Positions 20,701 through 48,185 of a stretch of DNA of 64,000 bases are shown in pieces. The notes beneath the pieces were generated by a model that saw only the letters and a list, made by a program, of their open reading frames with translations, did not search any database and had not been told where the DNA came from. Source of the DNA: Marsupella aquatica (Eukaryota > Plantae > Marchantiophyta); assembly GCA_973895155.1 (NCBI GenBank), contig OZ316894.1:5934368-5998367 (forward strand), in the 5' to 3' direction. How positions within the stretch are numbered: the first letter of the stretch is position 1; the number at the start of each line of letters is the position of its first letter. The translations under genes were made by a program, and so were the position numbers.

Positions 20701-21065
20701 AAACTACTTTCCGATCAATTCGGAGATCGACAACATTCTTGGGGAGCGTGCTGACAATTCAGAAAACTTTGTTCCTGGACTTTTTGCAGCAAATACCGGT
20801 GTGGTGGAGGTGGTTGTACTGGTGTACGCCCCATGCATGGAGCTTTTACGGCCTCATAGGATCTCAGCTTGGTGACGTCGAGACCCTCATCACTAAGCCA
20901 GATAACATGGGCCAGCAGATCACATTGAAAGAATACCTCGGTAGTTATTTCGGTTTCGAGCATAGCTTTCTGAAATTTGTGGCAATCGAGCAAGTCTTGG
21001 TTGTTGCTTCCTTTGCCATCACCTTTTCTCTTTGCATCAAATATCTAAACTTCCAACGGCGCTGA
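8749..21065 (+). CDS. Full-size ABC transporter G family (pleiotropic drug resistance, PDR) protein, multi-exon
   Basis: [15 protein letters not shown]-terminus; NBD1 [31 protein letters not shown]; [16 protein letters not shown]; TMD1; NBD2 [53 protein letters not shown]; [14 protein letters not shown]; ends LNFQRR-stop; GT-AG introns throughout. Confidence 0.97.
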
Positions 21066-21789
21066 GCATGATCACGAGATTCTCACACTCTGTACAGCAG
21101 GATGAAAGTTTTACTTGTAAATAGTAGTTGAGCATCTGATCTGAGTCCCAGATGACTACGTTGTTACAACTCTCGATCTTGTAGAAATTGAAGAAATTTC
21201 ATTATTTTGAGCATGGATTTCTGGCCGAGAGAACGCTAGAAGATGCTTGACTATGGAGAATCCTTGAAGGACTTAGATTCTTATGTTCAAGGAGCCACAC
21301 ATGTTCGAGCGATTTTATTGATGAACAAGCATATATTGCACCTAAGGGTAATTCTTGTACAATATGAAGGGGTCTACATATTTTTATATGTACTAAGAAG
21401 TTGGCTCTAATACATTAAAAAAAAACAGGGATTTTCACTGTTTAAGATTTTGTGATGTGTATGAAATTTTATTTTCTTATTTTTCCACATAAGATTTTAA
21501 AAAATTCTTAATACTGCTGTAAGTTTGTGAAAAGATTTTAAATATCCAAAACTTTATAGATGCTGGCTCGTTAATTTGACTGTAGACGGTCCCTATATTA
21601 AACAAATAGCCATATAATTTGGTATTGTCAAGTGTTTACACCTCGGTTTATGCATCAAAACATGTTTCTACTAATAGTTACATCTTTGGATTCCTTGAAT
21701 GAGTTGAGAGTTACAAGAATTTAGTAGACTAAAATGAAATTTGACTTATTAAATTGGATATATAACAAGTAAAAAAGGGGTCCAGGTCA

Positions 21790-22873
21790 ATGGTGGACCT
21801 TGCCACCCAGCGCCCTCACCAATCCCAGCACTTGCGCCTAAGTGCCCTTGGTGCCCGAACGTCTCCACGGAATACCTCGAGCAAGCATCCAAGTGCCTCT
21901 AGCACCATCAACGGCCACTCCCATACGAAGTCGCACTTGCTCACCTACACGACCGCTACTCAATGGTACTCACTGTCTGCACAAACAACCAAGCATCTCG
22001 GTAAGTAACCCCTCCGGATCTAGAACTCGCCAAGTCTAGCATCCTAACTCAAGCTCAAGAGACGTTGGTAAATAGGTCAGCGATAGGTCCTCTCGATACC
22101 ATAAGCCGGAACCAAAACCCACGCCCACTGTCCGTCCAGGACAGCTCCTTCCTTGGGCGCGGCCCGGGTTCCCCCTCGTACCTATCCATCACCAACTGAC
22201 CGCCCTGACCTCAGGACATGCTCATGGCCCAAATAGCATAGCTTGTCCCAAGCTTGTCCCAAGCTTGTTTCAACACGTCGGGACCAAAACGGCCCCGACT
22301 CTAACACCGACTCCCGGTTTGCCCCACTGATGGTCTAGGGACCGAGCGCCCTTGGGACTCTGCCTCCATACCTACTTGGCCTTGTCTCCCCAATGCAAGC
22401 TCCCTTGGGAGGCTGAACGCGGCTTGGCTGCTGCTCGGCAGGATTTGGCAAACGGGCGAACTAACACCCGCAAACCACGAGAACCCATGGCACCCCCAGA
22501 CCCAGCTGAGCTCAAGAGGGCGTAGCCCTCTTCAAGAGCTTTCCAACGAACCCAAGAAGTCCTCCAACGGACTTCCCGTTGGAAAGATATCGTCATTTCC
22601 GTTTGGCGGTTTCTCTTAGTGTCGCGACCGCCGCGGCTCACGACTTCGGCTCGCCCTTAGTCCCCAGGGAGACACCACTCCCCTCATATATGTTTCTGGA
22701 GACCTACCACCCCTGGACCAGCTTTGGTCCCTAACATTTGGCCCCCAACCCGGATCCCATCGCGCATAATGGGCGCGCCACCAACTGGCAACGCCCATAA
22801 CTTTCTTGATAGGCATCCGCAAGCGGAATGCTTTAGCCCGTTGTGACCGGGCCGACCCGGTGCTCATGCCTAG
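21790..22873. other. GC-rich degenerate sequence (old repeat or TE remnant), left half of the site interrupted by the 13-kb transposon
   Basis: Abrupt GC-rich block with no coherent ORF; similar GC-rich sequence resumes at 35966-36350, right after the transposon's right TIR. Confidence 0.45.
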
Positions 22874-22890
22874 ATCAGCCTATTCATTAA

Positions 22891-23240
22891 AAGTGTATTA
22901 TTATTTGATTTATGTACATTTGGGCAGTGAAAAGTGTACTTTTGGGCTTGGAAAAGTGTACATTTGGCCAATGAAAAGTGTACATTTGGGGATAGAAAAG
23001 TTTACAATTGGCCTAAAGAGTGTACATTTGGGCAATGAAAAGTGTAAATTTGAACATCAAAATAGATACATTTGGCTTTAAAAGTGTACATTTGAGTACA
23101 TTTGGCCTAGAAAGTGTACATTTGAGTGCAAAATGCATACATTTGGCTTAACAAGTGTACATTTAAGTGCATTTGGTCTAGAAAGTGTAACTTTTAGTGC
23201 AATAAAGTGTACATTTGGCCTAAAAAGTGTACATTTGCCT
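22891..23240. repeat. Left subterminal array of (A)AAGTGTACATTTG(G), about 15 copies at ~21-bp spacing
   Basis: Directly visible; begins inside the TIR; a typical transposase-binding-site arrangement. Confidence 0.9.
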
Positions 23241-23488
23241 ACCAACTCTTATTATAATCATTTAAAAGAAAGGAATGAATAGAAAAACATTTTTAATTAT
23301 GTAGAAAAAGCAAACATTCATATTTATAATGATCAAAAGTTTAGAAAATGAGGAGATAGTATCACATTAAAACTATTAGAATAGTAAATAACTAGTACAT
23401 AAATTACTATGTTTGAATGAGTGACTATCTTAGTTACATAAAAACTAGTAACTATCTATTTAATTATTATAGCTTCTAACAACTAAGT

Positions 23489-26400
23489 CTACTTGTCCAT
23501 CCTTTGAAGATAATTTTGGACAGTTTGTAGAACATTTCGAGGGATCTTCAAACCCCTGCCTGCCATGTTTTCTTCTTTCATTCCAGATTTAAAACCATAC
23601 ATTGCAGAATTTGCATACTGCCAATGTTGAGTATTCTCACCAAACCCTGGATCTCGTTCCCATGTCTTAGTGGACATGAAACAATTTAGATACCGCGCAC
23701 TCTCAGTCACATCAAGTTTACTAGAGTGTTTAGGCCTCCACCATTCAACTGGGAACATTGGAGCGTACTGTCGAGGCAGAGAAGGGTTTGTTGAAGATGT
23801 AGTTGGGACTTCATGCTTTGGGTCCACCAAACCCAAAGCTCTCACCAACCAGAAATGACCTCCACCATTTTTATTCTCCCAGTCATCCTCGGGTCGAAGA
23901 AATACAAAGTTTCCTTCACAAATATCTTGTAAAGGAATCCATCGTCCTTGTTCTCTCTCAGCTCGAGATCCAACAAATGGTGCTGCCTGATCTTCCATCT
24001 CTTCCAAGACCTCATTTTGAAGAGCCGTCATCTCTGCATTCTCCTCATCTTCACTTGGAGGACCACTTTGTTCCGGTTGGTTGACCTTGTAACCAGTGCC
24101 GTGGTTAGTCTTAGGCCAAAATCTGTTTTCCAAGGGAAATTGAGTACTTCCCTCCCCTTCTAGTGCGAGCCCATTTGTCAACAACTCCACAATTCTCTCC
24201 CAATATTTCACAAGAGGAAATCTTTCCTTATATGCTATAGATGTCTCATCAGTGCAACTCCTTCTCAAAAAATCAAGGTACTTGTTAAGAAATGGGATAA
24301 TCTCTTCAGATTTTTTGTGTATCTCTCCAATGGATTTAGCTAAGGGCTCTCCACTTGGTAAAAGAAGAGAATTTGTTGTCAGATCTGTTGCCCAAATGCA
24401 CCTTCCACCAAGTGGAGCCCAAGCTTGCTTTACATGGGACTTATACTGAAATATTGGTACATTATCTCTCATAGAGAAAAGAAATGATACAGGTTTTGAG
24501 TGACCTTGAATATCTTTCACCTTGAAAGTTTGAAGATATTCTTTGTAAGATGCAACTTCTTGTATCAATCTGGGAACTGGATGAATGCTCTCGCATTCCC
24601 ATACCTCTGCCATAAGAGCAAGGAGGGTTGCAACTTCTTTGTGCTGAACTTGATATGATACCTTTGAAAAGAGTGCATCAACATCTTCATGCGTATGACC
24701 AACCATTAGAAAAGACATTTGAACAGTTTCAAATACTCCTCTACTCACAAGCTCGCTACAAAATGCCATGACAGTCTGGTTTTTGTTGTCCTTTGCTGAA
24801 TTATCCATCTGCAATGTTAGGTGCCTTGGCAAGGGCTTGAACGATGGACTGCCTTGCTCTCCTTGCATGTCTTCTCCATCATCCTCATCTTGCTGGTTTG
24901 GGACGGTCTCAGTCCGACTCTCAGCTCCATCTTCAGAACCAATATACCTATTCACCGGTATATTCTTTGGTTCCAAATAACCCGTCAAAAATGCTTCAAA
25001 GTCAAGTAGGGCTTGAAAGAAAGGTCTGTGAGGTTCCCAATGAAGGCCATCCAACATGTCACCTGTCTTGTCTCCATTGTACTCTTCAAGGTCTCGAAGA
25101 CACTTAGCCAAGGATGTCACCGTGAAATCGGCATCTCCTGGCCAAAGGCCAGTGACACTAAAGTGTGCATAAACTCCTGGATCCCTCCCGTGGGTCAACA
25201 TCCCTGTGAGAGCAATAGGTAGCGGCATTCCATGACCCGAAAGAGATTTAGGAGTACTAACCATTTTTGGAATCCATGTCTTTGCTTGATCCATCTTGTC
25301 GTGAATAATGCAAAGATATTCTCCTGGGTGTTGTTTGGCCATCACTCGATGAGCGTAGTAAACATATCTACATGACATTTGCTCACGAAGATGTTGCGCT
25401 CGTTTTTCTTCAATTTCAGCACGTTCTTTTTTCCTTCTTTCTCGCATCAAACTGTCTTTGTATTCACAACAAAGAGTACACTTGGCAAATGCACCATCTT
25501 TATGAAAACTGAAGTTTGCAAATGAGTTACTCCAGATCTTGTAGAGAGTATTCTCTGTGACAGGAGGAAGCCCTTCTTCCTTCATCTTTGTTCTCACATC
25601 TTCCAGAATCTCTAGCTTTTTGTAACACGCCGGAAGACGGTACTCAATAGAGTCTGTCCCATGTGCCCCTCCATAAGGCATATGAGGCATGGGCTCTGCA
25701 TTTCGAGTCAAAAAAGCCTCCAACAGAGCTCGTGCATGCAAGGTATTTGCCCTTGTTTTCATCAAGCCCGTATTGCCATGGAACCCAATTTTGCAACCCT
25801 CCACATATCTCCTTTTGTAATCATAATATTTGGTGTGGCTAAAACCGTGGATAATTGCAAATGCATGTCTGCATACGACCATACCCTTAAGAACATGGTG
25901 TCCCTTATCACGAACATCATCCTCTCTATAGTGAAAGAGGTTGAAAATGTGTGACGTTTTTGACTCGCTTGACATCCCATGAAATTCCATCCTAATATCT
26001 TCGATGTTTTCCCTTGGCATAATGAGACAACATTTTTGCTTGCAACAATTTTCTCTTTTCACGTCATCAATTGACGCCTCTGTTGTTTTTGAAATTGCCT
26101 TGGTTTCCAACAACCTCCTCTTCTTTTCATTTGGATCTACTTGATTCCTCTTGTTAAAATTGTAGGGCCTTGAACGCAGTACTCCTCTATCACTTACATC
26201 CGCATTGAGTTCATCCCTATCCATTGAGTCCATCCTTTCAGAACCTTCCACCAAAATATCTGACAAAAATTTTCCATTTGCAACTAGTTTTGTTGAATCA
26301 ATCCGCCATCGAATCAAACTCACTACTCCCTTGTGGATGTTGGGAAAGTATTGTGCTGCCACGACATCTTTCACAGCAATCCCAACATGGTCATCACCAA

Positions 26401-27265
26401 GAATTTCATCATCAACTGCCGCCATCACTTGAGGGACAGTGATCGTTCCCGTGGCAACCATTTTGGTTCGATCCAAACCAGTGTAGAGTTCAACCAACTC
26501 TGACATCCAGTTTGCCCGATGAAAATAGTCACACTTAGTGTCTGTGGTGTTTGCCGAACAAGACTGTGAAACAAAATCCGCCTTGTCCTTCTGCTTCTTA
26601 GAGGAAGATTTGTTGCTCCCATCGATATCAACATTCCATACTTTATTGTGGACGTCAGCCACATCCCATAGAACCCAGGAGCCCTTTGCCTCTTCAATTG
26701 TTGCAGCTCCACCATGTGCGTAAGGTAAAGTCTTACTACCATGAATCACATCTGTGATTTTTACACTAACCCGAGACTCACCGAGTAATATGTTATGACA
26801 TCTCTCCATTGGATCAGTGTTGAAAACAACTCCAAAGGCCACACAATGGCCAGAGATAAACATTTCAACCTCATCACCTGGCCTTAGGGTGGTCGAAGCA
26901 TCCTCCTGTACATTTGCAGAATTATGGATGTTGTTATCTTTTCGAGTCGAACAACTACCAATACTGATGCGTTTTTGAGTAATCTTATCCGCAGATCGAT
27001 ATGCACATGACATATCCCAAATGACACATGAGTCAATGGCATCATGAAGATTTTCCGCCCTAGGCATTGGAAAAGGGAGCTTCCTGGTCTCACCAAAGGC
27101 CTTCTCAATGAGAACCCCAATTCGATTCTCTCCCAGCACAATATTTTGAACACTCTCTTGCGGATCTGTCTTTTGAATTGTCCCATTTCCAACGTCGTAA
27201 CCATCCATTGTCAAGGTCACATCATCGCCCCTAGAAAACCTTTGAGACATCCTTTTCCTATTATC
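23489..27265 (-). CDS. DUF7869/Sola-like DDD transposase with three N-terminal TnpA(En/Spm)-like repeats
   Basis: Uninterrupted ~1258-codon exon: FAKCTLC, CIIHDKMDQ (D1), LQMDNSAKDNKN (D2), SFLMVGHTHEDVDALFS (D3). N-terminus has three VxxGxI...LG...V...W repeats (LP core in the first two); C-terminal GNFVFLRP...FWLVRA...VEWW barrel-like domain. Acceptor at 27266; possible in-frame upstream exon 28283-28370; first in-exon ATG at 27250. Confidence 0.88.
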   Translation of the reverse strand, partial: DNRKRMSQRFSRGDDVTLTMDGYDVGNGTIQKTDPQESVQNIVLGENRIGVLIEKAFGETRKLPFPMPRAENLHDAIDSCVIWDMSCAYRSADKITQKRISIGSCSTRKDNNIHNSANVQEDASTTLRPGDEVEMFISGHCVAFGVVFNTDPMERCHNILLGESRVSVKITDVIHGSKTLPYAHGGAATIEEAKGSWVLWDVADVHNKVWNVDIDGSNKSSSKKQKDKADFVSQSCSANTTDTKCDYFHRANWMSELVELYTGLDRTKMVATGTITVPQVMAAVDDEILGDDHVGIAVKDVVAAQYFPNIHKGVVSLIRWRIDSTKLVANGKFLSDILVEGSERMDSMDRDELNADVSDRGVLRSRPYNFNKRNQVDPNEKKRRLLETKAISKTTEASIDDVKRENCCKQKCCLIMPRENIEDIRMEFHGMSSESKTSHIFNLFHYREDDVRDKGHHVLKGMVVCRHAFAIIHGFSHTKYYDYKRRYVEGCKIGFHGNTGLMKTRANTLHARALLEAFLTRNAEPMPHMPYGGAHGTDSIEYRLPACYKKLEILEDVRTKMKEEGLPPVTENTLYKIWSNSFANFSFHKDGAFAKCTLCCEYKDSLMRERRKKERAEIEEKRAQHLREQMSCRYVYYAHRVMAKQHPGEYLCIIHDKMDQAKTWIPKMVSTPKSLSGHGMPLPIALTGMLTHGRDPGVYAHFSVTGLWPGDADFTVTSLAKCLRDLEEYNGDKTGDMLDGLHWEPHRPFFQALLDFEAFLTGYLEPKNIPVNRYIGSEDGAESRTETVPNQQDEDDGEDMQGEQGSPSFKPLPRHLTLQMDNSAKDNKNQTVMAFCSELVSRGVFETVQMSFLMVGHTHEDVDALFSKVSYQVQHKEVATLLALMAEVWECESIHPVPRLIQEVASYKEYLQTFKVKDIQGHSKPVSFLFSMRDNVPIFQYKSHVKQAWAPLGGRCIWATDLTTNSLLLPSGEPLAKSIGEIHKKSEEIIPFLNKYLDFLRRSCTDETSIAYKERFPLVKYWERIVELLTNGLALEGEGSTQFPLENRFWPKTNHGTGYKVNQPEQSGPPSEDEENAEMTALQNEVLEEMEDQAAPFVGSRAEREQGRWIPLQDICEGNFVFLRPEDDWENKNGGGHFWLVRALGLVDPKHEVPTTSSTNPSLPRQYAPMFPVEWWRPKHSSKLDVTESARYLNCFMSTKTWERDPGFGENTQHWQYANSAMYGFKSGMKEENMAGRGLKIPRNVLQTVQNYLQRMDK

Positions 27266-27334
27266 CTGCACACTGAAAAAAATGGATTACAACCAAAGTC
27301 ATGCAAATTTTGATTCAGACTGCGATCCTCAAAG

Positions 27335-28080
27335 TCTGGATTTGGACTACGATCCTTCAATTCCGGATTTGGACCGGGACCATCCAAGTCCGGATTTGGA
27401 CTACGATCCTCTGATTCTGGATTTGGACTAGGACCATCCGAGTCCGGATTTTGACCGGGACCATCCAAGTCCGGATTTGGACTGCAATCCTCTGAGTCTA
27501 GATTTGGACTACGATCCTCCGATTATGGATTTGGATTGGGACCATCCGAGTCCGGATTTGGACTGGAATCCTCCGAGTCTAGATTTGGAGTACGATCCTC
27601 CGATTCTGGATTTGGACTGGGACCATCCCAATCCAAACTTGGACTCGGACCATCCCAATCCAAACTAGGACTTGGACCATCCAAGTCCAAACTTGGACTC
27701 GGACCATCCCAATCCAAAGTTGGACTCGGACCATCCTAATCCAAACTTGGACTCGGACCATCCCAATCCAAACTAGGACTTGGACCATCCAAGTCCAAAC
27801 TTGGACTCGGACCATCCCAATCCAAAGTTGGACTTGAACCATCCTAATCCAAACTTGGACTCGGACCATCCCAATCCAAACTAGGACTTGGACCATCCAA
27901 GTCCAAACTTGGACTCGGACCATCCCAATCCAAACTAGGACTTGGACCATCCAAGTTTAAACTTGGACTCGGACCATCCCAATCCAAAGTTGGACTCGGA
28001 TGATCCCAATGCAAAGTTGGACTCGGATGATCCTAGTCCACATCTGAATCCAAACTTGGACTAGGACCATCCTAGACCAA
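27335..28080. repeat. 27-bp palindromic minisatellite array A (TTGGACTCGGACCATCCCAATCCAAAC-like, about 27 units) in the predicted transposase intron 27266-28282
   Basis: 9-aa periodicity in the overlapping spurious ORFs; each unit is an imperfect hairpin TTGGA...TCCAA. Confidence 0.95.
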
Positions 28081-28639
28081 CCCATAATGTAACGGGAGAT
28101 AAACTTCAAACATTTTAAGCTAAGAAAATTCCAAATTTAGGAAGACTCCGTATTTTACGGATCTCCCTATATGGTGTAGCCTAAAGTTTGCGTGGTCTTA
28201 AGGTAGACCCTAATGTCTACATACAGTTTCATGAAATAATGAAACCTAGCCTTATATTTGAATGCGTTAACCTTATACTCACCTTAGTATTAAGATCTGG
28301 TAGAATATGAATATCACATCCAAGGGGGATACATTGTTGTCTGTAGATTGGTAAAAACTTTCCCAGAACCCTGAAATACAAGCTATATGCCACTAAATCT
28401 TGGGAGTAAAAAACAAACTGAACCCTAAACCACACATGTCTGTAAAAGATAAACTGAGAGGACCCCAAAAGTCAAGAAGCTGGCTAAGCTGACCCATTGA
28501 AGGTAAGTGGCTCAATACATAACACTTTAAGAGAAACTCCGGATTACATGGAGCTTAGATTTGGGAAACTAGAACAAGAATGAGCTCCGAAGTGGGCGTC
28601 TCCCGAAATATACCCTTTGCTCGAGTCGGCTCAAACGGA

Positions 28640-29142
28640 AATCGCGTGAAGATAAGGGTTGAGTACCCCTTCACCTTAGCTTGCGGCACACCTTATCTTC
28701 ACGAGCCTAATTGCGCGGGGACTACCGTGCAAGGCTGTTAGGTAGGCAGGACATCAAGGAAGGAGGCCCGTATGCAGGGTGCGGGCAACGGGCCGTACGC
28801 AGGAGCAAGCCGTACGCACTATCAGGCCGTACGTAGGAGAAGGAGGCAACCGGCCGTACGCAGGCCGGGGTGAGGCAGGAGGGGGTAAAGGGACGGAGAG
28901 GTCCAGCCAGGACCTCATTCTCATTCTCACTCTTTCGCTCCTCACTCTGCTCACGCTCTCCACTCTCCGCCTCCGCTCTCTGCTCTTTGCCTTCACTCGC
29001 TCGCTCTCCTCGCTCTTTGCTCTCCGCTCTCTCTCCGCCTCCCCGCCTCTGCCTGCTTCCGCCTCCACCTCCATTCTTTTTCATTGCCCTAAATCGGACG
29101 CCTGCTAAGAAGCCACGTGTCACTCTGCCACGTGTCAGAAAG
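28640..29142. promoter_or_regulatory. Putative bidirectional promoter between transposase and cargo gene
   Basis: GC-rich block between divergent genes; 13-bp inverted repeat (28645-28657/28691-28703); four CCGTACG plus one CCGTATG (28765-28865); CT-rich tract 28915-29080; two GCCACGTGTC G-boxes (29112-29136). Confidence 0.55.
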
Positions 29143-29303
29143 ATGGAAGCGAATCGCGTCCTTGTGAAGTCCTCCGTGGAAGCAACAGAGGAGTTTGACC
29201 TCTCCTCTATGAGCGACAGTGTAGAACTGGCACTTGAAGACTCCAAACAATTTCAATCAAGAATCCCTAGTAAGTATCCATCACCTATCCTCCCTAAGTC
29301 TTA

Positions 29304-29672
29304 GAGGACTGGGACCATCCGAGTCCAAAGTTGGACTCGGATGATCCCAATCCAAACTTGGACTCGGACCATCCCAATCCGAACTTGGACTCAGATGATC
29401 CTAATCCAAACATGGACTCGGATGATCCCAATCCAAAGTTGGACTCGGATGATCCCAGTCCAAAGTTGGACTCGGATGATCCCAATCCAAAGTTGGACTC
29501 GGACCATCCCAATCCAAACTTGGACTCAGATGATCCTAATTCAAACGTGGACTCGGATGATCCCAATCCAAACTTGGACTCGGATGATCCTAATCCATCC
29601 AGGAGATTGAATCTCGATTGTAGGAGCAAGACTAAAACCATCTCAAGTTGGACTAGGACCATCCTAATCCAA
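29304..29672. repeat. 27-bp palindromic minisatellite array B (about 11-12 units) in intron 1 of the cargo gene
   Basis: TTGGACTCGGATGATCCCAATCCAAAC units, same family as array A, lying within GT 29270...AG 29735. Confidence 0.95.
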
Positions 29673-31529
29673 CAAGAGTTATTCAAATGTTTTAAACTTA
29701 ATAAGTCTAACATGGATGATGTTTTTATGATGCAGGGAGCGATCTTGTTGGTTTCAAACCCGCGATTGCACCGACCGACTGCCGGGACGGATTCTTACTA
29801 GATGAGAGATCCCCAGGCTTCCGATGGGGGCTTGAGTTCTCAAGAACCCCGCTTAATAATGAAGTGCCATCAAGCACGATTGAACCTGTTTTGACCTTAA
29901 AGTGCAGAGCAAATGATAGCCTGACTTTGGTTTGCGGACCTGTGGTCTCTGTTGGCATTGGAGGGAGAGGGATGAATTCGGTCATTCTGGAGATGCACGA
30001 TAGGTCATGCTGGGTTAAAGTTAACCTTATGTCAAAGGCATACTCCTCAGAATTCAATGTCGAATGGCACGCAAGTGGTGAATTGAGCGTTTTATCAATG
30101 GGATTTTTTCCAAAGACATATGACACAAAGAAGTTGGTCATCGGGGTAACTGGTATGCTTCCAGTCGACATTATGTATGGGTTTCAATATTTGAAACTCA
30201 ACATGATGAAGCACCAAGGCAATTTCTCTTTTGCAACTACTTGGACGTTAAGCAATTTACTTGAGAAAGTTGGATTGTTATCGTTGGAGTCAGAGGAGCC
30301 TGGTGTTTTAATTGATAAGGATGTTGCATTTGATCCCAACTTTGATTTAGTCAAAGCAAAGCAATGGATAGAATCTTTGTCAAAGACGAGAAACCTTCCA
30401 ACGGTGAATACAAACCCTGTGCCCGAGAAGGCGCCAGAGAAAGCTCCAGAACCTACAACAGAGACCGCGGGAACTACAGCAGCAACCTCTCAAAGAGCAG
30501 TGGGAAACAAAAACAAAGCCAAAGGAAACCTCCGGTTGAAAAGAAACTTCCAGTTGAGAAGCTGGTTGAGAAGCCGAGTACGAGAAGCCGAGTTCAGAAG
30601 CCAGTTGAGAAGCCGAGTACGAGAAGCCAAGTTGAGAAGCCAGTTGAGAAGAAACGTCCGGTTGAGAAGCCAAGTGCAAGTGAAAAGAGGCCACGACAAA
30701 AGAAGAAACAGAAAATTGACAGTGTCATCATGGATGACACTACAGAAAACCTGACAGTGCATTCACAAGATATGGACGAGCAGTTGGACGCTCCTGAGGA
30801 GAAGAAGGTCTTAGAAGGTAATGAGGTACTACAACAAATGGAGCAATATTATACGTTTGGGATCAATTCGATATTTTCTATTCCCGTAGAGAGTATTTTC
30901 CCTGCGTCGGCAAGACTCTGTTACAGAATGTTGAATGCAGACCATGTAAAGGAGGTGGCCAATTCCATGATAAGAAATCCGGGGCATGAACCACACATAG
31001 CAGACTTGATTCCTTACACTACAAAACATAGAAACCTAATGCAATATGACAACACGGAATCAGATAGGAGGGACTTTGTAGCAGCCGTGAAAAAGGGGGA
31101 GGTTCAATTCCTTGCCATTAGCGGTCAACATTCAGCCAGAGCAGCCAGATGGATTCGAGAATGGGCAAACAAGGATGCCAAGCTAACAGCATTGGCAAAA
31201 AAGCTGGAATTTCGAAAGTCAAGAATATTATCTCATTGAACACCATCATCAATATTAGTTGAGCATTCAATGCGATCTAATGCTATCAATAGCACGATGG
31301 TGTTTCAGTCATGCTTCAAAGATACAGTCGTTCATGCTAGGCGGCAATTTGTGGAATGTGGAAAACCTAGCCGGCCAAAACATGGGGACAACAAAACAAA
31401 CGCTCAACTGAAGACAATCAAAAATTTCAGGTATGAAGTGTTACTGCTTGATTGGTACAATACCGTAGACTCTCCATGTGTGATTACAATTGAGATGGTA
31501 GTCTTTGACCACAAAGCTTCAAGTTTGCT

Positions 31530-31872
31530 TTGGATTGAGATGGTCCGAGTCCAAATGGATACATTCACATTCAGTAGAATATTTCCACTGATATCGTCTA
31601 GTTTTGTGTTGGACTGGGATGGTCCCAGTCCAAATGGATTCATGCACATTCAATAGACTATTTCCACTGATATTGTCTAGTTTTGTGTTGGACTGGGATG
31701 GTCCCAGTCCAAATGGATTCATGCACATTCAGTAGAATATTTCTCCACTGATACCGTCTAGTTTTGTTTTGGATTGGGATGGTCCTAGTCCAAACTAAAT
31801 CATGCACATTCAATATAATATTTCCACTGATACTGTCTACTTCTGTGTTGGACTGGGATGGTCTCAGTCCGC
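31530..31872. repeat. Array C: four ~80-bp units each carrying the palindrome TTGGACTGGGA-TGG-TCCCAGTCCAA, in intron 2 of the cargo gene
   Basis: Perfect 11-bp-arm hairpin in two of the units; core inverted relative to arrays A and B; one further copy at 31530. Confidence 0.9.
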
Positions 31873-34524
31873 ACCTGAGTGCTTTCAAACAATTGAGTTA
31901 TGGAGAACTAACAGACGTTCCTTTGCAATTGTAGGATTGGTTGGCTCTTGCAAGAATGACCATGGGAAGGAAAGATTGTCGTAATGTCTACTGGTTACTG
32001 TTTGCCGACAATGCTCTTTTTGATTTATGGAGTTTGGTATGCCAATTGTGGTTGGATGGGAAACTTCCCGATGGAGCTGGTGTAGAAGGAAATGAGAAGT
32101 CTGAAAAAGCAATTACTGTTGCCATGTTTCGTTGTTTTGATGGTGAGTTGATCTCACAACGAGACATCACAAGAATACTGACGCGGGTGAAGTCAGGAAA
32201 GGTATTGCTAAAGAAAGATGCCTCTAATAAATCAGACATGCCATCTATAGAGGAGTTGGCCAAAGATGTGAAGATCGTGCGGAAACTCAAGTCCCTTATT
32301 GAAGACTACTATTGCACCAAGGATGCGGTGAATTTCCCGACAAATACTAATTGGGGGAAAGTAGTTGAGGTTCTTCCTACGCTAGCAATTGATTCAGAGT
32401 TCAGCAGGTGTCGAAGAGCCGCTGGCGAGGTCTATCTTGCCAACCTTTTAAAGCCAAATCATACGCGGGAGAGCGCAATCTTGCCGACGGCATTGGTATT
32501 CCGCCTAGATGATATATACTGCCAGAGATTTGGCGGAGGATCACGTTCTCGGACCCTACCATGGGTTACATTTTTTAGCGACAATCTCATGAAGACCATT
32601 GATCCAGAGTCATTGCAAGAAGCTCCTCCGACCTGCCCTCTTGCCATTGTTGATTTTAGCCGGCTTCCACAAAAACAGTGGACTGAAGCAGAGATTCTTG
32701 TTCTCTTTGAATACATTGTGGAGCTTCCACAAAATCCCACGATTGTGGTGACGATAACAGTTCATCCTGGACAACTTGCACTGAATGTCCATGGTGCCCT
32801 TCGTAAATTGGGACAAGAGAAAGCTTTGACCATTCACATTGAGTATGGGAGTTATTCACGAGATGATCAACCGCACCCTCATGACTCATGTTGGGGTGGA
32901 GGGATTGAAGAAGTTATCTTTGCAGGGATTTCTCGAGATGAAGACGTCAATTGGAATGAAGTTTTCAAGCCCAACTATCCAAAGCCAAAATTCTTGTATA
33001 CTTCAAAGGATGTTGATTATGAAGTATGCAAGATCGACAAGGGAAAGGGGAAAGCTAAGGAATCAGATGAGGGGACACAAAACGACGACCTAAAAGTGGT
33101 TTTGGACCCGGAAGAGGCCGTCAAGATTATGAATATGGCCCCTCGATTTGAGACAGTTGGTAGTCGCGGAGGATGGGTTAATCCTCATGCCAAACCCACG
33201 CGGATGATCCGAAGGATTATTGAATCCTTATCAGAACCGGGAGATTTGGTTCTAGATTTTTTCTCCGGTGGCCAAGTCATGAAGACATCATTTTTTTGCG
33301 ATAGGGAATGCTTTGTTTATTGTGACTCTCAGTCCGAGAGGCATTTTGTGGAAGCTTTTGCTTCCTACCTTTGCGAGAGAGTTCCCTCACTTAAAGCCCA
33401 TTGTGAATCACTTGCTGAAAATTCTCGACAATGGGCTACCACTATTGCGGCTGTAGCTGTCGCTGTTGAATCCGACGGTTCTGAGTCTGAAGATGTTGCT
33501 GACAAAGTGGCTAAAGGCGTAGAGGCATCAGACGAGGCATATGTCAAAAATTTGGATGACCGTGTTGGTCAAGGTGAGCCTTACGATGTAGATGATGATA
33601 TTGGACTTGCACCAAACCGTTCATCTGGTTTAGATGACATCCCTCCGGGGCCCCATGAAGTTCAAGTTGATGATAACTTGGACAAGGATGATCCCAATCC
33701 AACAACGCCGGGAGGACAGATGGAGCAACTGGAAGGAGCAAGGGTTGATATGTTTGATCATCTTTCTTCAACCAATCTGATCAACGAAGGCGCAACGAGG
33801 CTTGGAGATTCAAATGAAGCTGAAACTAACGAATTGACTCGTGGGGAAGCCGGCGGATTGCCTGACATTCCCATCAATCCAGGAGGAAATGCATCAACGG
33901 CTGCTGACAACCAGGCAGGTGCTTCAACTTGTCCTGACACACTCTTTTCAGCTTCTGATGACAAATTGGTGTTCGTTCGTTCACACTCGAGGAGTCCTGT
34001 TGTCCTTCCGTTCTCAAAAAAGAAAGGGAATAGAGTTGGATCAACTGGATGGAGGTCATTGGAACGCGACGCACGATGTTACGTGTGGAAAAGTGGGCCA
34101 AATCGAGGCCAAGAAATATCATTGGAAGCTGCTCCTTCAATTCTCAATAAGGAGGAGTATAAGAGGGGAGAATTGGGGTTCATAACTCCTGTTTGGACTT
34201 CTCCTTATTGGGTAGAACAAAGTACTTCAGATGTCAATTTTGAAATCCAACAGGAGCTTGGTGCTGACATGATTATTGATGAATACGGATCTCTTATTTC
34301 GGAATGAAATTCAGCCTTTGACTTTCTATTTATTCATATCAATCTAAAATACTTCTCGGTCTCACAGAATGGGCTCACCAATTAAAGTCTCCATATCCGT
34401 CTACACATTGTGAGGCTTCTAAAAACGGTATGTAGGTTAATTTTCGTTTTTGTCAGCCATTGTGTTGTATTTTTGGACTGAGACAATCCTAATCCAAAGT
34501 TCACTTTTGGTCTTTTCTCTGAGA

Positions 34525-35583
34525 ATGGTGTTTGGTGCACTTGCAGAATCGAGACCTGGTCCCGTCAAGCGGAAGTTGCTGATTTTGGACCTTAATAAAA
34601 TACTTTGGGATTCTATTGAATTCCAAAACAAGGGCACATCCAGGAATATTGTCACCTCAAGTGGAGTGCATTGGGATAGAAAAAATGGTATTAGTCGCAT
34701 GTATACAGAACGACCAGGGCTCCATGAGTTTCTAAAGTTGGTTTTTGACAGATTTGACGTTGCAATTTGGACTTGTGCTGGGGTAGAACGAACAGTGAAA
34801 ATGCTGAACATGATGTTCACTGTTGAGGAGCGGTTGAAACTTAAGTTTGTATTCACACAGGTGGAAGCCTTTGACACAGGCATTCAAAGGCGTGACATTA
34901 CAAACGGAAAGGCAAATGTGCTACTGAAGGATTTTCAGGTGGTATGGAATGCATTTGGAAATCTATATGATGAAACCAACACCCTCCTTGTGGATGACTC
35001 CCCCCTTAAGGCATTTGCCAACCCAGACATGACCGGATTATTTCCAGTGCCCTACACGCATGCCAATCGTGGAGATAATTTTCTTCTAGCAATTCTTTGG
35101 CCATGTCTTGAGAAACTATCACATGCAAGTGACATTCGATGCTATCTTCTTCTCAACTCTCCAAAGTGGTCTCTTTTGCACATGAAGAGAGACAAGGCAA
35201 AAAATGAGATTACTTATGATCAACTTAGCAAGAGATTTGCAGCAAAAATTTGGAAGTCACAGTTTACACATAGTGTGTTGGACCTCAACAGTAATGAGAT
35301 CCCTTGGAATGTAAAGCACCGTATATGTAGTTTACGTCCTGAGGTGGAACTTGACAATGCACTTGTCAACTCACTTGCTAAATCATTTTTAGGAAAGGAC
35401 TATTCAGGTCCATATAGAGAAAATCCCAGACACTTTTTGCGGGAGATTATAGCCATTAGGAACAACACCACCAGATTTCAACTCCCTGAAAATAAAGTGA
35501 GTTGCAACCGTGACAATAGGGTAGATAGGAAAGGAGACAGGGGCACATGCTCAAATACACATTGTAGGGAGCACTTGGTTTAG
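34525..35583 (+). CDS. FCP1/SCP (NIF)-like HAD-superfamily phosphatase domain protein, transposon cargo
   Basis: KRKLLILDLNKILW (DLN variant of DxD), ERPGLHEFL, FDVAIWTCA, LLKDF, NTLLVDDSPLKAFANP; open frame to 35583; may be spliced to an upstream 60-nt exon 34368-34427. Confidence 0.85.
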   Translation: MVFGALAESRPGPVKRKLLILDLNKILWDSIEFQNKGTSRNIVTSSGVHWDRKNGISRMYTERPGLHEFLKLVFDRFDVAIWTCAGVERTVKMLNMMFTVEERLKLKFVFTQVEAFDTGIQRRDITNGKANVLLKDFQVVWNAFGNLYDETNTLLVDDSPLKAFANPDMTGLFPVPYTHANRGDNFLLAILWPCLEKLSHASDIRCYLLLNSPKWSLLHMKRDKAKNEITYDQLSKRFAAKIWKSQFTHSVLDLNSNEIPWNVKHRICSLRPEVELDNALVNSLAKSFLGKDYSGPYRENPRHFLREIIAIRNNTTRFQLPENKVSCNRDNRVDRKGDRGTCSNTHCREHLV

Positions 35584-35835
35584 ATATTTAATTGACTTGT
35601 GTTAAGCCCCTTGGATAGTACTAGAAACATGTTCGTATTCAATGTAAATTTGCAGATAATTGTATAAAGATATTTTATAATCTATTTGGAATGATGTTAT
35701 TTTGTTCACAGAATATCTGGTCCTTAAATGGGGATGAAATAACTTTATAAATTTTTATCCTCCATTTCTATGTGAGTTATTAAATAATATAATATGTATT
35801 ATTTATTAATATAATATTAATGTGATTTGGCCTAT

Positions 35836-35915
35836 AAAGTGTACATTTAGAGACACAAAAGTGTACATTTGGGTGTCTTGAAGTGTACATTTGGGGACAT
35901 GAAAGTGTACATTTC
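35836..35915. repeat. Right subterminal AAGTGTACATTT repeats (4 copies)
   Basis: Same motif and same strand orientation as the left array, adjacent to the right TIR. Confidence 0.88.
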
Positions 35916-37770
35916 AAGACTCATTTGTGAACAAAAGAAAATACACTTTTAATGAATAGGTTGATCTAGGCCCTCAGGTCTGATTGCCACTCGGGCCACA
36001 ACTTGTGCGCCAAGCGTCCGTTGCCAATGGCATCAACTCCATTGGCCTTGGGCCCAAGAGGAGCTCATTCCCAAGCCCTCAGAACTCAAAGCCCATCCGA
36101 TGGTCCGAACGGCCACCCTTGAGCCCGGCCCATTTCCCCTTGACCCAACCAGCCATAGGCTAGTCCAAGTCCTTAGTGTGTGTCCCCAGCTTGGCCCCTT
36201 GCCTCGCTAGTGCCACGTCTCATTGCCCACCAGTCTCCCCATGCTAAGTCCTCCCCCGGATGGCCTATCCGAGCCTGGACCATAAGGGAGCTCGGTGTCG
36301 GAGCCAGCGACGCCGGAGCTAAGTGTTAAGGTAGTCGAGTTCTGCAACTAGGTCTAAATTAAGGTTTGAAAGAGACCTCTAGCCAGTCAGGGTAAAGCCT
36401 GTCATGTATTTGTTCCTTCAGTAGCCTAGTTTTGCTAATTAGGGGACTTGGAAAGAAAAACTTAGTTGAAGCAATAAATTTGGATGTTTAAGAATAAAAT
36501 GGTGAGAGTGATTAGCCAGCAGAACTGAGAGACTTGATGTTGTATGATGAAAATTATGGGATTGAAGTCACATATCACGGGGTCTCATATCACGTGCAAA
36601 GTTTTAATCAAAATGCCCCGTGGAGAATTTTCCAACAAAATTTCAGCTTCACCAAGGGTTTAATTTTTTTTAATTCTTACATTGCAAGTGATGAGGAGAC
36701 CTCCATATAGTGCAACCCCAATAAGAAAGATAAGACTTTTTGAATTCAAATAGGAGAAGAAAAATACTGAAATATGTCTTTTCTTATTTTTAGGGTGTAC
36801 CTCCCCTTGTGGCAGCAAAGAAGTCAGTGGACAGCGGGCTTCTTTGCTAGCCATTGCTTGATCCCATGGGTTGATACTTTGGATCCAATGGTCTACTAAA
36901 GCTCTTTGTACATTTTCAGGTGTCTCCGGATCTTGTTTAACTGCCCTTTGGAAAGATCCAATGGTCTAGAGAAAAGACAGCTTTCATCCAACTGTTAGTA
37001 AGAGCAGATTATGGCCTCAATGTCATTTAGCGAACAGATGATGAGATGGCATATTATAGGTTTAGACTAGGTGAGTGACACTAGTTACCTCGAGAACTCC
37101 ATGATGGAACGTGTGATTTAATACATTCTATAATAACACGTGCCATAAGCACCTAAGATTGTATTTCATCAAACTTGAGGAACACCTGAAATTTGTGATG
37201 ACCAACAAAATTGTTGGTCTGTCTTGCAGAAGAAGCCACACTGTAAGCACAAACTGCGATCCGGTAATGATCCCTTAGCAAGTCCTTCCGTTTCACTTGT
37301 TTACAAACGAATGATGACTTTTCCAGTCAAAACCCAAAATGCGATGTGTACTGTAGATATATTGCATTGCTCTATATATTGACGCCGGTTTCTTTCCCTA
37401 CTGGACTACTCAATAATATGGCACCAAGGTTTTGGCTCATGGTCGAGGCATTTAATCGAAGAGTGTTTCGTGTTCTGGTCCCACACAATTCTCCTCAAGA
37501 ATCATAATTCAAAATTGGGGACCGATCTGTTTCTACAGCTATCGTTCTGCTCAACATCTATCTAAAATTGAAGATCCTTGCGGTGCTGCTGTGCAATGTT
37601 GACTGATTGCCTGGTCCAAAATGAACAATCGATGTGGCGCGTGTGTCTAAAGAATTTTACAGCGGACTGTCACCATAAGTAGAGTTCCTAAATCGAGGTT
37701 GCTTTGCCCGCGTAGTGATGGACGTAACTGTTACGTGAGTTGAATGATTAATGTAATAGACATGTACATA

Positions 37771-39477: not shown

Positions 39478-41795
39478 CCCTCCAGACAATCACTAAGTTG
39501 AGCTTTATCTACAGACTGCGACAGTCCTTATTGAACGCACTTGTGTGCATCAAAGCGATCAGGATAGAAAGAACTCGGGCTAGCTGAGCTCCAGTCTGCA
39601 AAATTTAGTAAACTTACGATCAGTTCAGTCTCAGTCTCGACAATTGAAACTTTTAGCCAGGTTCTACATCAACCTCCTTGACAGACTTCCATGCAAAAGT
39701 CTACATGGACTGAAGAAGTTAAGGTTCAAAAACTCAGTGACATATCCAGCGCATTGGCTCTAATTCGCCTGCAGGTATACCCTGCGCACTCAATTCCGTC
39801 GTAGCATTCCGCGCAAACTACAGGGACACAAGTCATTTCTAACTCTGACGAAGCCAATGCATTGACGTACTGGATAGCCTACTATAATATATAATATATA
39901 ATTATGCACTTCCTTTGTCAAGCATCTCATGCAAAACACGGTGATCGGATAACGACGGTGAGGAAGAGAGATGGGTGCTCATTAATCTCTCATTTTGCAA
40001 AAATGACCAAGTGTCGCTCTTGTTATTTATAGAAAGACGGCCTTCGTGTCCCCATCAGAGCGACCTCCAAATGAACGTAATTTAGTATCACGTCACTCCC
40101 CTGTATGTTACTTAAATATATAGACAATTCACTCACAAAGAAAATAAGCAAAGGTTACACAGTCATAGGAAATGGAACCTCAACAAATGAATGAGGCCAG
40201 ATGCCAATAATTGTCCAAGCTCACATTCTCAATTCGTAGATCAGCTATATAATAACATTGCAGTGACAATTTTCACACTGTAATCTATTCACAGTTTGCT
40301 CCATCATAACCTTGCTAGCTGGTTCAATTTTGTAGCCTATTTTGTCAGTGGTTGTTGCAAAGGATTGCATGCTCATTAGTCAAAAACAGATTATGAGGAT
40401 ATACCCCTTCCATTCTTCAACAACTTTTGTCTTTCCTTGAAATCTTCTACTAACTAAGTATCAACCATAGCATATACCGTTGGGTTGACTAAGGAAGGAC
40501 GGTTTCTGACGTTGCAGGCATACTCCAAGGTTTTGAAAACCCCAATGAGGATATGCCTATGCCTTGTCCACTGTTGACAACGAAGGGTTTTTACCTCGTA
40601 GAATTGTACTGTAGCCCAACATCGATTTGGAAATTGTGTACCCCTTCATGGCCACTTCTGGCAGTGGGTTACAAAGTGAGAAGAGCTCAGTACTTTTGCA
40701 ACGTGGATGGATTGTTGGCAAACATTGAACCCACAATAGGGCTTACAATATTTCTTTTGTACATCACACAGGTAACTTGCCTGGGTCATTCCAACTGGGT
40801 TGTGCTAGAGAACCTCCCTGAGACCCTAGTGTTTGACAAGATGGTCAGATGGACTGCTTCAACCCACATTGACCCCTTTGGAAGGTTACTTGTTACTCAG
40901 ATAGTATCTTTCTTTTACAGAAATTTCAACCTTTTTGGGTGTCAAATAGTCCAACAGAGCCCCGCAACTGAGTCCTGAGGTCAAACGTGCAGTGCATCCA
41001 AACATCCTCTTCAGATTTTTATATTCTAAGATTTAATATATTGTCACTCTTCTTTGGCAATTCAATACTTACTTTGCTACTAGTTTCAGTTTAAACCCCA
41101 ACTACTGGTATTTAACCGACCTTATTGCAATGGTAACCCATCATTCCACGCCCTGGTCCCAGGCACCCCATTTTGCAAAATACTGTTTACTGTGTATAAG
41201 TGCATGGTGTATAAGTGCATTGCTTTGATAGCTGCAAGTTGGTCATGTAGTCCCTTAATATTACAACATTGTTTTTCAAAAATGCACCGTTAGTAAGTAC
41301 AGGTCAATGTCACTTAAAGACAAGTACATAAGTGTATTGCGGTCCATAAGATTTTATATGAGAGTGCATATGCATTTATTAATTACTGCAATGCATACAT
41401 AAAAAGCATTTATTAATACTTGCAGTGGACAATTACACACAGTAGTTTCATGCACATATCCAGTTGAATCATGCACTATGAGGGTTCAGGATATGAGCAG
41501 TCCAATGTGTATGACGTGAAAGACTCCATCCATCTAAAACCCAGGCATGGCACCCTGCACGTAATAAGCTAAGAGCAGCAATTGAACTAGCATCTGCACT
41601 GCTTGAAACTGACATGATAAATAATAGCCATGATTTCCCACATGGCAGTGTAGTCTATGGACAAAGGGATACTTATCCATAACTAGAATTGCAGGAAAAT
41701 CAACACAAAGCAATGAAGGTGATTTGGCTGCCAAAGGGCCAATTAAGCTCCAGTGGTTCACAATTTGAATATAATATATATATATATATATATAT

Positions 41796-42097
41796 TGTTA
41801 GGAATTGACTCGAGTTCCCGACTTAGTTTACTTAGTTTGGCCTTACTAGGGTTAGTTAACCCTGGATTACATTAGGATAAGATCCGCTTTGTTTAGGCCC
41901 ACTCATCTTGGCCCCCTTGGGGGGTATAGGCTGGAGGGAGAGAACTCTCTCCCTCATTCTTCACATGTACTCTCATTTGTTATGGAGCCTTTAGGAGTTT
42001 CTCCACTCGGGGTGTCTTGTTGGTGTAGCGTCTGATTGAGTGAGTCTCTCTCACGTTTCCGCATTGCTGTCTAGTCCGGAGCCGACGGTTTCTTACA
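41796..42097 (+). repeat. 5' LTR of the copia element
   Basis: TGTTAGGAATTG...GTTTCTTACA; nearly identical to 47884-48185. Confidence 0.97.
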
Positions 42098-42099
42098 AT

Positions 42100-42111
42100 T
42101 GGTATCAGAGC
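42100..42111 (+). promoter_or_regulatory. Primer-binding site complementary to the tRNA-iMet 3' end
   Basis: TGGTATCAGAGC 2 nt after the 5' LTR, the canonical plant copia PBS. Confidence 0.93.
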
Positions 42112-43803
42112 TTCATGTTCGTGGTTTGGTGGCTTGGGCAGTGGTGAGAGCGTTCGTTGTGTTGGATCGTGGTGGAAGATTGAATCATCGTCGATGATTG
42201 TGTGATTGTTTCACTGGTCGTTTTGCGTTGAAGGTTTCATGAATACAGTGACGGTTTCCCGATTGAAACTTCAGCCTGGAGTGTCGGATGTGTCTCTGTT
42301 CTTTGAAGTACTGTCAAGAGGACAGTCTAGCGATCTCTTATGCGCGTCGGTGGGCACTACGTTTTGGTGAAGGTTTCACTGCTTTTCATCATTGGTGTGC
42401 CGAGTAATCTTGTAGATTGAGGTTGCTGTTTAGAGCTTGATGCTCTAGGTTATGGCTTGTATATGGTTCGACTTAATCTTGTGTGGGGCCGAAAAAAGTT
42501 GTTTTCTTTGTAAAAAGGTCGTGCGTTGAGGGACCGGTGTTGCAATTTTTTTTCTTTTCGTATACTTTTGTTTGTGCCGCCTCGCAACAGAATACGGCGG
42601 TGCGGACGGGTTTCTTTGCGTATGTGCGGAGAGAGGGCAAAAGGGAGATTTTATTGCCCGGGCACGTTGCCCTATGCGCACGAGTGAGCCAGGAGGGCTC
42701 GGAATACAAAGGATTGAAGGAGGAGCATAGGAGAAAGTCGAGCCCCTGGCCCGAGGCCCTATGAGGTACTAGAGCAGGGCCTTACGTCTGTGCAGGTACA
42801 ATCGTACCTGTAAGTACAGTTTTAAAGTGAGGGGAGGGGGAGTTCAAAGCTCCCTTCTCTTGGGAGCTTTAAGGGGGCCATTGCCCTATGCAGAAGCAAT
42901 AGGAGGGGAAAGGGGAAGCGAGCATACACCTTTCCTTAGGGAGCACTTATTAACATGGGCACGAGGCCCTATGCTTGTACTTTAAGTGAGGAGGGGAGCA
43001 TACGAGGCTCCTTTCACTTTGGAGCCTTTAATTAAGGCTTGCGTCAGGTGGGTGGCCAAGGACACAAAAGGTACTACTGTACCTACACAGTACAGATTTG
43101 GGAGGGGGTACGAGGGGGTATTATATATCCCTGTACTCTGCCAGGTACAGCGTACATAAATCGGTGAACAAGGAGATGGGCAGGCGCGCGACCCTATGTG
43201 CGAGAGTAATTTTTTTTTGAAAATAAATTGAAGGCCGGGAGGACGATTGTAGTCTTTTCGTTCTTAATTTTTTTTGTAAAAGCCAAAGGGTTTTTACTTG
43301 TTTTCTTTTCTTTTCCTTCCGTGTTTGGATATTTTCTTTTCCAATCGAACAGGTGTCAGCTCCACATTCTTTCTGCTGTACATTTCGACTGTACTTTGAT
43401 TCCCTGGAAAAGATACTTTTCCAGAGAGCTGATTTTTGACTGAAAATTTCAATTTTGGCGGTCGTCGAGGCAGAATTTTTTTGCGACACTTTGCAAGTGG
43501 ATACTCAAGGGAGTTGAGCACGGGCTAGTGAAATTGATTCGTGCGTTGCTGTTGCGAAATTTTTTCGGGACCTAAGATACCTGACGGGGGTCAAAACAAC
43601 CATTTTGACCCCCCTCTGGTCCGGGTTGAATAAGTTTTTGCTGAAGAAGTTTTTCGCCGAATTATTTTCAGATCTTGGCAGTGTACCTTGCAGGCTATGC
43701 GGCGGTGCATTCCATTTCCACTTTCGCCAACTTTCAATTTTTGGTGAATTTTTGGGTGGAGGTATTTCGGTTGTGTATTTCCTGTGTGTTTGTGGCATCA
43801 TCA

Positions 43804-47816: not shown

Positions 47817-47883
47817 ATATGTTACTTAGTTACGTATTGTATTTCACCTGACTCATTGTGTGAACTGGAGTCAAGGTGGAGAT

Positions 47884-48185
47884 TGTTAGGAATTGACTCG
47901 AGTTCCCGACTTAGTTTACTTAGTTTGGCCTTACTAGGGTTAGTTAACCCTGGATTACATTAGGATAAGATCCGCTTTGTTTAGGCCCACTCATCTTGGC
48001 CCCCTTGGGGGGTATAGGCTGGAGGGAGAGAACTCTCTCCCTCATTCTTCACATGTACTCTCATTTGCTATGGAGCCTTTAGGAGTTTCTCCACTCGGGG
48101 TGTCTTGTTGGTGTAGCGTCTGATTGAGTGAGTCTATCTCATGTTTCCGCATTGCTGTCTAGTCCGGAGCCGACGGTTTCTTACA
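47884..48185 (+). repeat. 3' LTR of the copia element
   Basis: Follows the PPT at 47873-47883; ends CA followed by TATAT. Confidence 0.97.

Follow-up and report, generated by a model that had tools for sequence, protein, structure and literature searches.

Why would a plant transposon carry a gene built from several enzyme-like domains together with arrays of a palindrome found nowhere around it? This question is raised by a 64,000-nucleotide stretch of the genome of the liverwort Marsupella aquatica (assembly GCA_973895155.1, contig OZ316894.1, positions 5,934,368 to 5,998,367; hereafter, the window). It contains a large cut-and-paste transposon in which an intact transposase gene and a cargo gene lie on opposite strands; the cargo encodes ParB-like, amino-methylase-like and FCP1-like domains. 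In this clade, the methylase-like, ParB-like and phosphatase-like domains have each lost their catalytic motif, so selection on the cargo is probably for binding, not catalysis. We tentatively propose, with somewhat less than even confidence, that the non-catalytic cargo recognizes the 25-bp palindromes of its own element and acts as a sequence-specific regulator that keeps the element transcribable. The ends of the element and its transposase are as follows.

22874..35965, about 13.1 kb: cut-and-paste transposon, Sola-type
22870..22873: left target-site duplication (TSD), CTAG, in the 4-bp reading; a TA reading is equally compatible with this copy
22874..22899, plus strand: left terminal inverted repeat (TIR), 26 bp, a terminal match with the right end
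35940..35965, minus strand: right TIR, pairing with the left 26-bp end
35966..35969: right TSD, CTAG, the same letters as the left flank
22931..23236, plus strand: left subterminal repeats AAAGTGTACATTT, found 12 times when 2 mismatches are allowed
35836..35914, plus strand: right subterminal repeats AAAGTGTACATTT, 4 copies at up to 2 mismatches
23489..27250, minus strand: intact Sola-type DDE transposase, 1253 amino acids, an open frame from the ATG at 27250 to the stop at 23489

Direct comparison of the ends showed that the 26-bp TIRs differ by 1 mismatch. CTAG flanks both sides, and the predicted empty site is the palindrome GCCTAGGC. Because this site is palindromic, this copy fits equally well a duplication of 4 bp, CTAG (termini ATCAG/TTGAT), and one of 2 bp, TA (termini GATCA/TGATC); both lengths yield one empty site. 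In the Sola superfamily the TSD is as a rule 4 bp long. The 4-bp reading is favoured, since a related element from metagenome data, L008, has ATAT outside AACAC/GTGTT and the Sola1-1_Ec32 element of Ectocarpus has a 4-bp TSD (PMC12477816). The subterminal repeats keep the same orientation at both ends, and the left ones have AAAGTGTA in common with the TIR; they are likely candidate sites for the transposase. The near-perfect TIRs, the CTAG/TA duplication, the subterminal repeats and the intact transposase reported in a preliminary description of this DNA were all borne out.

The transposase matches Pfam DUF7869 (E 2.9e-43), which we take to be the transposase domain of the Sola superfamily; its homologues carry PF26133 in precomputed tables. 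Three N-terminal repeats of about 80 amino acids each (24-35% alike; window 26280-27240, minus strand) are followed by CxxC...H, HDKMD (D651), QMDN (D816) and GHTHED (E855). As expected of an RNase H-like DDE transposase, the motifs of the acidic triad are well kept in the alignment, with HDKMD in 19 of 21 rows, Q(M/L)DN in 21 of 21 and GHTHED in 19 of 21. Among 69 matches to the transposase, the best named one is from Riccia sorocarpa (45% over residues 400-1000), and the next named ones are from Physcomitrium, Ceratodon and Mytilus. The Physcomitrium DUF7869 proteins, which carry no Sola1 label, match at E 7e-70 and 7.5e-61, and the best blastp match of Sola1-1_Ec32 is Sola1-1_PPa of Physcomitrella (PMC12477816). 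Judged by these Physcomitrium matches and the Ectocarpus annotation, the likely subgroup of the transposase within the Sola superfamily is Sola1. Subgroup Sola2 was considered and rejected; its DFAENY, SDG and HGKS..DG motifs were not found in a by-eye comparison with the alignment in supplement S10 of PMC3627910.

To estimate copy number from depth, contigs of four public runs were aligned to window positions 21000-27290 and 29680-37500. In run X1, the contigs that match the window almost perfectly had depths of 454.8 and 431.3 over the transposase, 363.8, 383.1, 430.8, 402.7 and 401.7 over the cargo, and 14.1, 14.7 and 13.7 over the unique flanks. The ratio corresponds to about 26-33 copies; this figure is no more than an estimate, drawn from a single run that is possibly the window's own source. 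The preliminary description had raised the possibility that other copies lack the cargo; by depth, cargo (364-431) and transposase (431-455) in X1 are similar over flanks of 13.7-14.7, and for this reason the cargo is likely family-wide. The element family is likely young and multi-copy. Run X5 (organism C) was rejected as cross-species evidence: its near-identical pieces had a depth of about 15 and the unique flanks were absent, which fits low-level admixture or a relative.

The element itself sits in a GC-rich host repeat of about 1.45 kb, which it splits into about 21791-22873 and 35966-36349. This repeat had a depth of 28,000-50,000 in X1, as against about 14 for unique DNA, and many contigs exit at 21791 and 36349; the repeat likely has thousands of copies, with no second copy found elsewhere within the 64-kb window. 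In run X2, one diverged contig also passes from the right TIR into CTAGG (window 35966-35970). The flanks of L008 (L008 1214-12494) and of a second metagenome element, L056, are alike, reading TAT(C/T)-ATAT-ACTT. A family-specific target preference is possible in view of these flanks and the X2 contig.

The opposite strand holds the cargo gene, laid out with the palindromes as follows.

28650..29142: between the divergent genes, a GC-rich (59%) region that includes a CT-rich tract; likely the shared promoter and 5' untranslated region
29143..29269, plus strand: predicted cargo exon 1, with an ATG and a GTAAGT donor, in frame with exon 2
29736..31430, plus strand: predicted cargo exon 2, with an N-terminal domain, a charged linker and a ParB/Srx-fold domain; three lesions
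31935..34307, plus strand: predicted cargo exon 3, with a helical domain of about 200 amino acids, a beta-class amino-methylase fold and an acidic linker
34368..34427, plus strand: possible mini-exon, predicted to bridge the methylase-like and FCP1-like exons in one reading frame
34547..35583, plus strand: FCP1/HAD-IIID-like domain (NIF), with DLN in place of DxD
27369..28080: 22 palindromes, one every 27 bp, upstream of the start codon of the transposase gene and probably inside a 5' intron
29304..29672: 12 palindromes, within the first predicted intron of the cargo (29270-29735)
31530..31872: 5 palindromes, one every 79 bp, within the second predicted intron of the cargo (31431-31934)

The predicted junction of exons 2 and 3 agrees with KFQ-D(W/Y) in spliced Calypogeia proteins, and a possible splice donor at 34222 would pair with the mini-exon. 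Two Riccia gene models join neighbouring parts of the cargo: KAL3695087.1 is ParB-like plus methylase-like, and KAL3690045.1 is methylase-like plus NIF. Since the possible mini-exon would keep the frame and a Riccia model fuses both domains, the cargo gene may include as its final exon what had been described as a separate CTD-phosphatase-like (carboxy-terminal-domain phosphatase-like) gene. A conserved EYGS-like tail that closes exon 3 in several homologues speaks against a fixed methylase-NIF fusion. Of the divergent cargo genes in the preliminary description, the plus-strand cargo opposite the transposase stands, and the phosphatase-like gene may not be a separate one. The N-terminal cargo domain (window 29738-30480, about 250 amino acids) is conserved in liverwort homologues and has zero Pfam or PHROG matches. 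The observed-to-expected CpG ratio was 0.66-0.70 in the cargo, 0.47 in the transposase and 0.46-0.71 in neighbouring DNA, and is not decisive.

In the window copy, three lesions break the cargo: one base is missing near 30504, positions 31237-31239 form a stop, and 5 additional bases stand near 31406. Such lesions beside an intact transposase would fit a cargo without any role, captured by chance or inserted as a nested piece and now decaying. However, most aligned contigs lack all three lesions, at a depth equal to that of the transposase; the family's cargo is therefore likely intact, and only the window copy's is broken. The cargo is also conserved over the long term across liverwort genera, as shown by 14 matches to its ParB part, 108 matches to its methylase exon (E<=0.001) and the Riccia fusions, and homologues are linked to related transposases at the metagenome loci L008, L025 and L077. 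A chance capture is thus hardly credible, and the reading of a multi-copy plant cut-and-paste transposon with a stable cargo is supported.

The methylase-like fold, at about 32550-33401, matches Pfam N6_N4_Mtase (E 2.4e-6) and the profile of M.RsrI (E 2.4e-8). The model of exon 3 has a predicted local distance difference test score (pLDDT) of 88.3 and resembles CcrM most closely (Z 18.2, root-mean-square deviation (rmsd) 3.4, 215 aligned residues), with PvuII at Z 15.8 and N4CMT at Z 15.2; with Z 14.3-18.2 to 11 beta-class enzymes, a permuted Rossmann fold is supported, in keeping with the methylase fold of the preliminary description. The catalytic motif is another matter. Where the motif IV strand ends, a position taken from the predicted model, all 30 rows are of DFSR type and none has PPY, and [DNS]PP[YFW] occurs nowhere in the sequence of any of 107 homologues. 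When the domain was aligned to one bacterial methylase with HHalign (probability 95%), the bacterial DPP fell on EAPP just upstream of this strand; the EAPP stretch is unconserved and has no aromatic residue. The N4CMT enzyme of bdelloid rotifers needs its SPPY, since an SPPY-to-APPA change abolishes activity (PMC8885841), and MpDN4MT1 of Marchantia carries SPPY (bioRxiv 2021.02.12.428880); an inactive methylase domain borne by a transposon has a precedent in DIRS1 (PMC4738411). With (D/S)PPY absent here and from 107 of 107 homologues, the suggestion that the element is a vehicle spreading active methylases for N4-methylcytosine (4mC) or N6-methyladenine (6mA) is not supported.

Some features of the domain would nevertheless suit a working methylase whose active site is unusual and which would mark the element's own DNA with 4mC or 6mA self-protectively, as proposed for algal elements. 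The beta-class fold is complete, the Asp that closes the motif IV strand is conserved in 29 of 30 rows, motif I is conserved as DFFSGG, NPxxKP is kept, and self-modification has been proposed for Sola1-1_Ec32 (PMC12477816). Against this stand the absence of PPY from every homologue, the loss of N4CMT activity on SPPY-to-APPA substitution (PMC8885841) and a motif I one residue shorter than that of M.RsrI; in beta-class enzymes this SAM-binding motif reads FxGxG. We consider such an activity quite improbable; cofactor binding by the domain may remain.

The ParB/Srx-fold domain, at about 30835-31400, was recognized by fold comparison only; Pfam, NCBIfam and PHROGs give this part no name and a search of PDB sequences with its alignment found nothing. 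For the exon 2 model (pLDDT 84.6), the top 8 VIA rows were all of the ParB/Srx fold (best Z 7.3, rmsd 3.4, 99 aligned residues), and the top Foldseek rows were Noc/ParB (E 2e-3). The scores are modest, and within their limits the ParB fold named earlier holds. The 14 matches to this part, Calypogeia fissa included, are 46-65% identical. ParB CTPase clamps need the arginine of a GxxR motif. In the window, this motif reads ISGQHS, and across 17 rows the GxxR position reads SGQHS (14), GGQHS (1), SRQHS (1) or SGAHS (1), with Arg in 0 of 17; the idea of an enzymatic DNA clamp is therefore not supported. A homodimer prediction for the Calypogeia ParB-plus-helical homologue P0114 scored 0.00 and is not evidence either way. 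In peptide scans, none of 346 pattern matches to the ParB part was confirmed in metagenome contigs; in viral contigs, none of 33 to the methylase and none of 40 to the transposase was confirmed.

The third domain matches NIF (PF03031, E 1.8e-15) and TIGR02245 (E 3.9e-15, below the model's cut-off). HAD phosphatases of the FCP1/SCP type need the catalytic motif DxDx(T/V). At this position the window reads DLN (DLNKIL), and the NIF domains of the window, Riccia and L008 read DLN, DVE, DSK and NVN; the second catalytic Asp is absent from the Riccia and L008 copies and from plant relatives with DLNG. With DxD altered to DLN, the reading of the domain as a phosphatase enzyme is not supported. A search for long proteins with a NIF domain returned two DLNG proteins (grass-like or unnamed), and was weak enough to miss the known Riccia fusion.

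If the cargo does not act by catalysis, what could it bind? The search for the palindromes used a degenerate consensus of 25 bp, itself drawn from the arrays, and tolerated up to 5 mismatches. All 42 copies lie inside the element, with 0 in the 50,908 bases outside and 0 in 5 of 5 letter shuffles. Because the consensus is array-derived, the informative part of this result is the absence outside and the single copies scattered at 24893, 33678 (acidic linker, exon 3) and 34473 (intron after the mini-exon); the palindromes are element-specific, as had been described. From 27369 onward lie 41 of the 42, mostly within predicted introns of both genes. The Marsupella element thus holds two separate repeat systems, namely the TIR-related ends and the internal palindromes. 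In the mechanism that we propose, the transposase would act on the TIR and the AAAGTGTACATTT repeats, and the cargo protein would recognize the internal palindromes, located close to the shared promoter within predicted introns. Its binding would keep the divergent promoter usable; the methylase fold would serve as a DNA-contact or cofactor-binding module, and the FCP1-like domain as a module docking a phospho-protein, possibly the RNA polymerase II tail.

Related elements were sought by a metagenome scan with the transposase alignment, and the best 80 of 477 confirmed stretches, mostly short or decayed, were merged into 63 loci by joining near-identical ones. L008 (with L010 and L011) is an 11.3-kb element with TIRs. 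On the strand opposite its transposase lie three tandem, decayed NIF-like stretches (L008 2473-5085), which lack the second catalytic Asp where readable, and it holds 31 copies of a different palindrome, TTTGGTGGCCACCAAA. In L025, remnants of the ParB-like and helical parts lie between copies of the L008 palindrome, and L077 has NIF-like remnants; a methylase core was detected at none of these best 80 of 477 stretches. L001 and L003 have palindromes distinct from those of both the window and L008. Upstream of the transposase, L001 has 8 palindrome copies and L008 has 24, whereas all 8 window controls have 2 or fewer; palindrome families of at least 4 copies occurred upstream at 7 of 40 loci, compared with 1 of 19 distal controls (L071, with 8). 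In the proposed mechanism, each family would evolve a palindrome of its own, as VANC targets do.

Several observations weigh against a regulator that binds the palindromes. Motif I and NPxxKP of the methylase-like domain are strongly conserved, which a dead enzyme would not require. The ParB Z-score falls in a range for which the tool warns that common arrangements can produce such values, and no helix-turn-helix, the domain with which ParB clamps bind a palindromic site, was identified in the helical domain of about 200 amino acids, whose best structural match has Z 5.0. Just 3 of the 63 non-redundant loci (the L008 group, L025 and L077) yielded remnants of the cargo, though many loci are short or decayed, and among 10 cargo and 10 transposase locus tags named for Riccia there is no adjacent pair. 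In X1, possibly the window's source, zero contigs span the element, so that linkage in other copies is deduced from equal depth. The palindromes themselves add to this: those of the L008 family also occur near both ends, the 4.6-kb element L056 (L056 8188-12837) keeps 8 of these and has no detected cargo, and L003 has 6 palindromes without a cargo match in 10 kb upstream, which fits binding by the transposase.

The palindromes could accordingly be transposase sites, used in synapsis or autoregulation, with the cargo a protein-level transposition helper like MURB or a factor acting elsewhere. The arrays of L001 and L003 lie directly upstream of the transposase, the Marsupella transposase has three N-terminal repeats, and MURA and MURB provide a precedent (PMC12973397). 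However, the ends of the window element carry a different, TIR-related motif while the palindromes are nearly all internal, and copies without cargo, such as L056, could be served in trans. We regard transposase binding as less likely, though well worth keeping in view, and continue to give preference, tentatively, to a palindrome-binding regulator. A bolder form of that regulator would be an anti-silencing factor made entirely from dead bacterial or phage and host enzymes, which shields the family-specific palindrome from 5-methylcytosine and docks RNA polymerase II, an independent second VANC-like system; this is conceivable, but we hold it to be doubtful.

Other features of the window lie outside the element. 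A Copia retrotransposon (window 41794-48185) has 304-bp long terminal repeats with 99% identity, and its gag-pol frame is split in two. Open reading frames at 3024-8027 presumably resemble a Mutator-like transposase (SWIM-like CxC...C.H, 4958-6106), with a divergent zinc-finger-like frame at 3024-4004. A tandem array with a period of about 77 bp occupies 53053-54124.

The preliminary description did not recognize this cargo from described superfamilies. A Sola1 element with an opposite-strand gene for ParB plus an N4/N6-methylase has, however, been described in the brown alga Ectocarpus, and its authors propose self-binding and self-modification (PMC12477816). Sola1-1_Ec32 resembles the Marsupella element in being a giant Sola with a 4-bp TSD, termini beginning with A (AACCG/CGGTT) and an opposite-strand ParB-like plus N4/N6-methylase gene. 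It differs in host, in length (21.5 kb, with a 282-bp TIR) and in a possibly active methylase, and the accessible part of that report mentions no FCP1-like domain or palindrome arrays; the two were compared by description. In the Plavaka (EnSpm) elements of the red alga Bostrychia, PAG2 and PAG3 include a ParB gene beside inverted-repeat arrays (bioRxiv 2025.02.11.637652). There, too, a ParB-like accessory protein with proposed self-binding occurs by tandem inverted-repeat arrays, along with a PF01555 methylase accessory gene; however, the superfamily is another, ParB is fused to a 2OG-oxygenase and the methylase to SET in separate genes, and no FCP1-like domain is mentioned in the accessible text.

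The VANC proteins of Arabidopsis VANDAL elements are likewise accessory proteins with tandem targets that vary between related elements (PMC5735166). They belong to the Mutator superfamily and have experimentally shown activity, and the domains suggest no homology to the cargo. In anti-silencing systems of the VANC type, the accessory protein binds motifs of its own element and lowers methylation. N4CMT and MpDN4MT1 share the beta-class amino-methylase fold in eukaryotes, but are active host genes that kept SPPY (PMC8885841; bioRxiv 2021.02.12.428880), whereas the Marsupella cargo is motif-less and transposon-borne, with 12% identity to N4CMT in the structural alignment. Phage fusions also place ParB N-terminal to an amino-methylase (PMC4738411), and a phage protein named ParB/Sulfiredoxin is among the top fold matches (BFVD); in contrast to these, the cargo is spliced, eukaryotic and motif-degenerate.

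The self-binding and self-modifying proposals of the algal papers, given there without experiments as far as the accessible texts go, become directly testable in the liverwort, because it offers a probably young multi-copy family, an intact transposase, a defined 25-bp candidate target and relatives with different palindromes. In this clade, the question moves from catalysis to binding. If anti-silencing were true, the liverwort would hold a palindrome-programmable anti-silencing system that is still young, and with it a new source of sequence-specific epigenome tools. No published report of a ParB-plus-methylase cargo in land plants, or of one with an FCP1-like domain, was found in a search that left most subscription journals and Repbase Reports outside. 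In sum, the Sola1 design of ParB plus methylase is already known from algae (2025); new in Marsupella are a probably young family in a land plant, a third domain of FCP1-like type, a family-wide loss of catalytic motifs and palindromes that are specific to each family.

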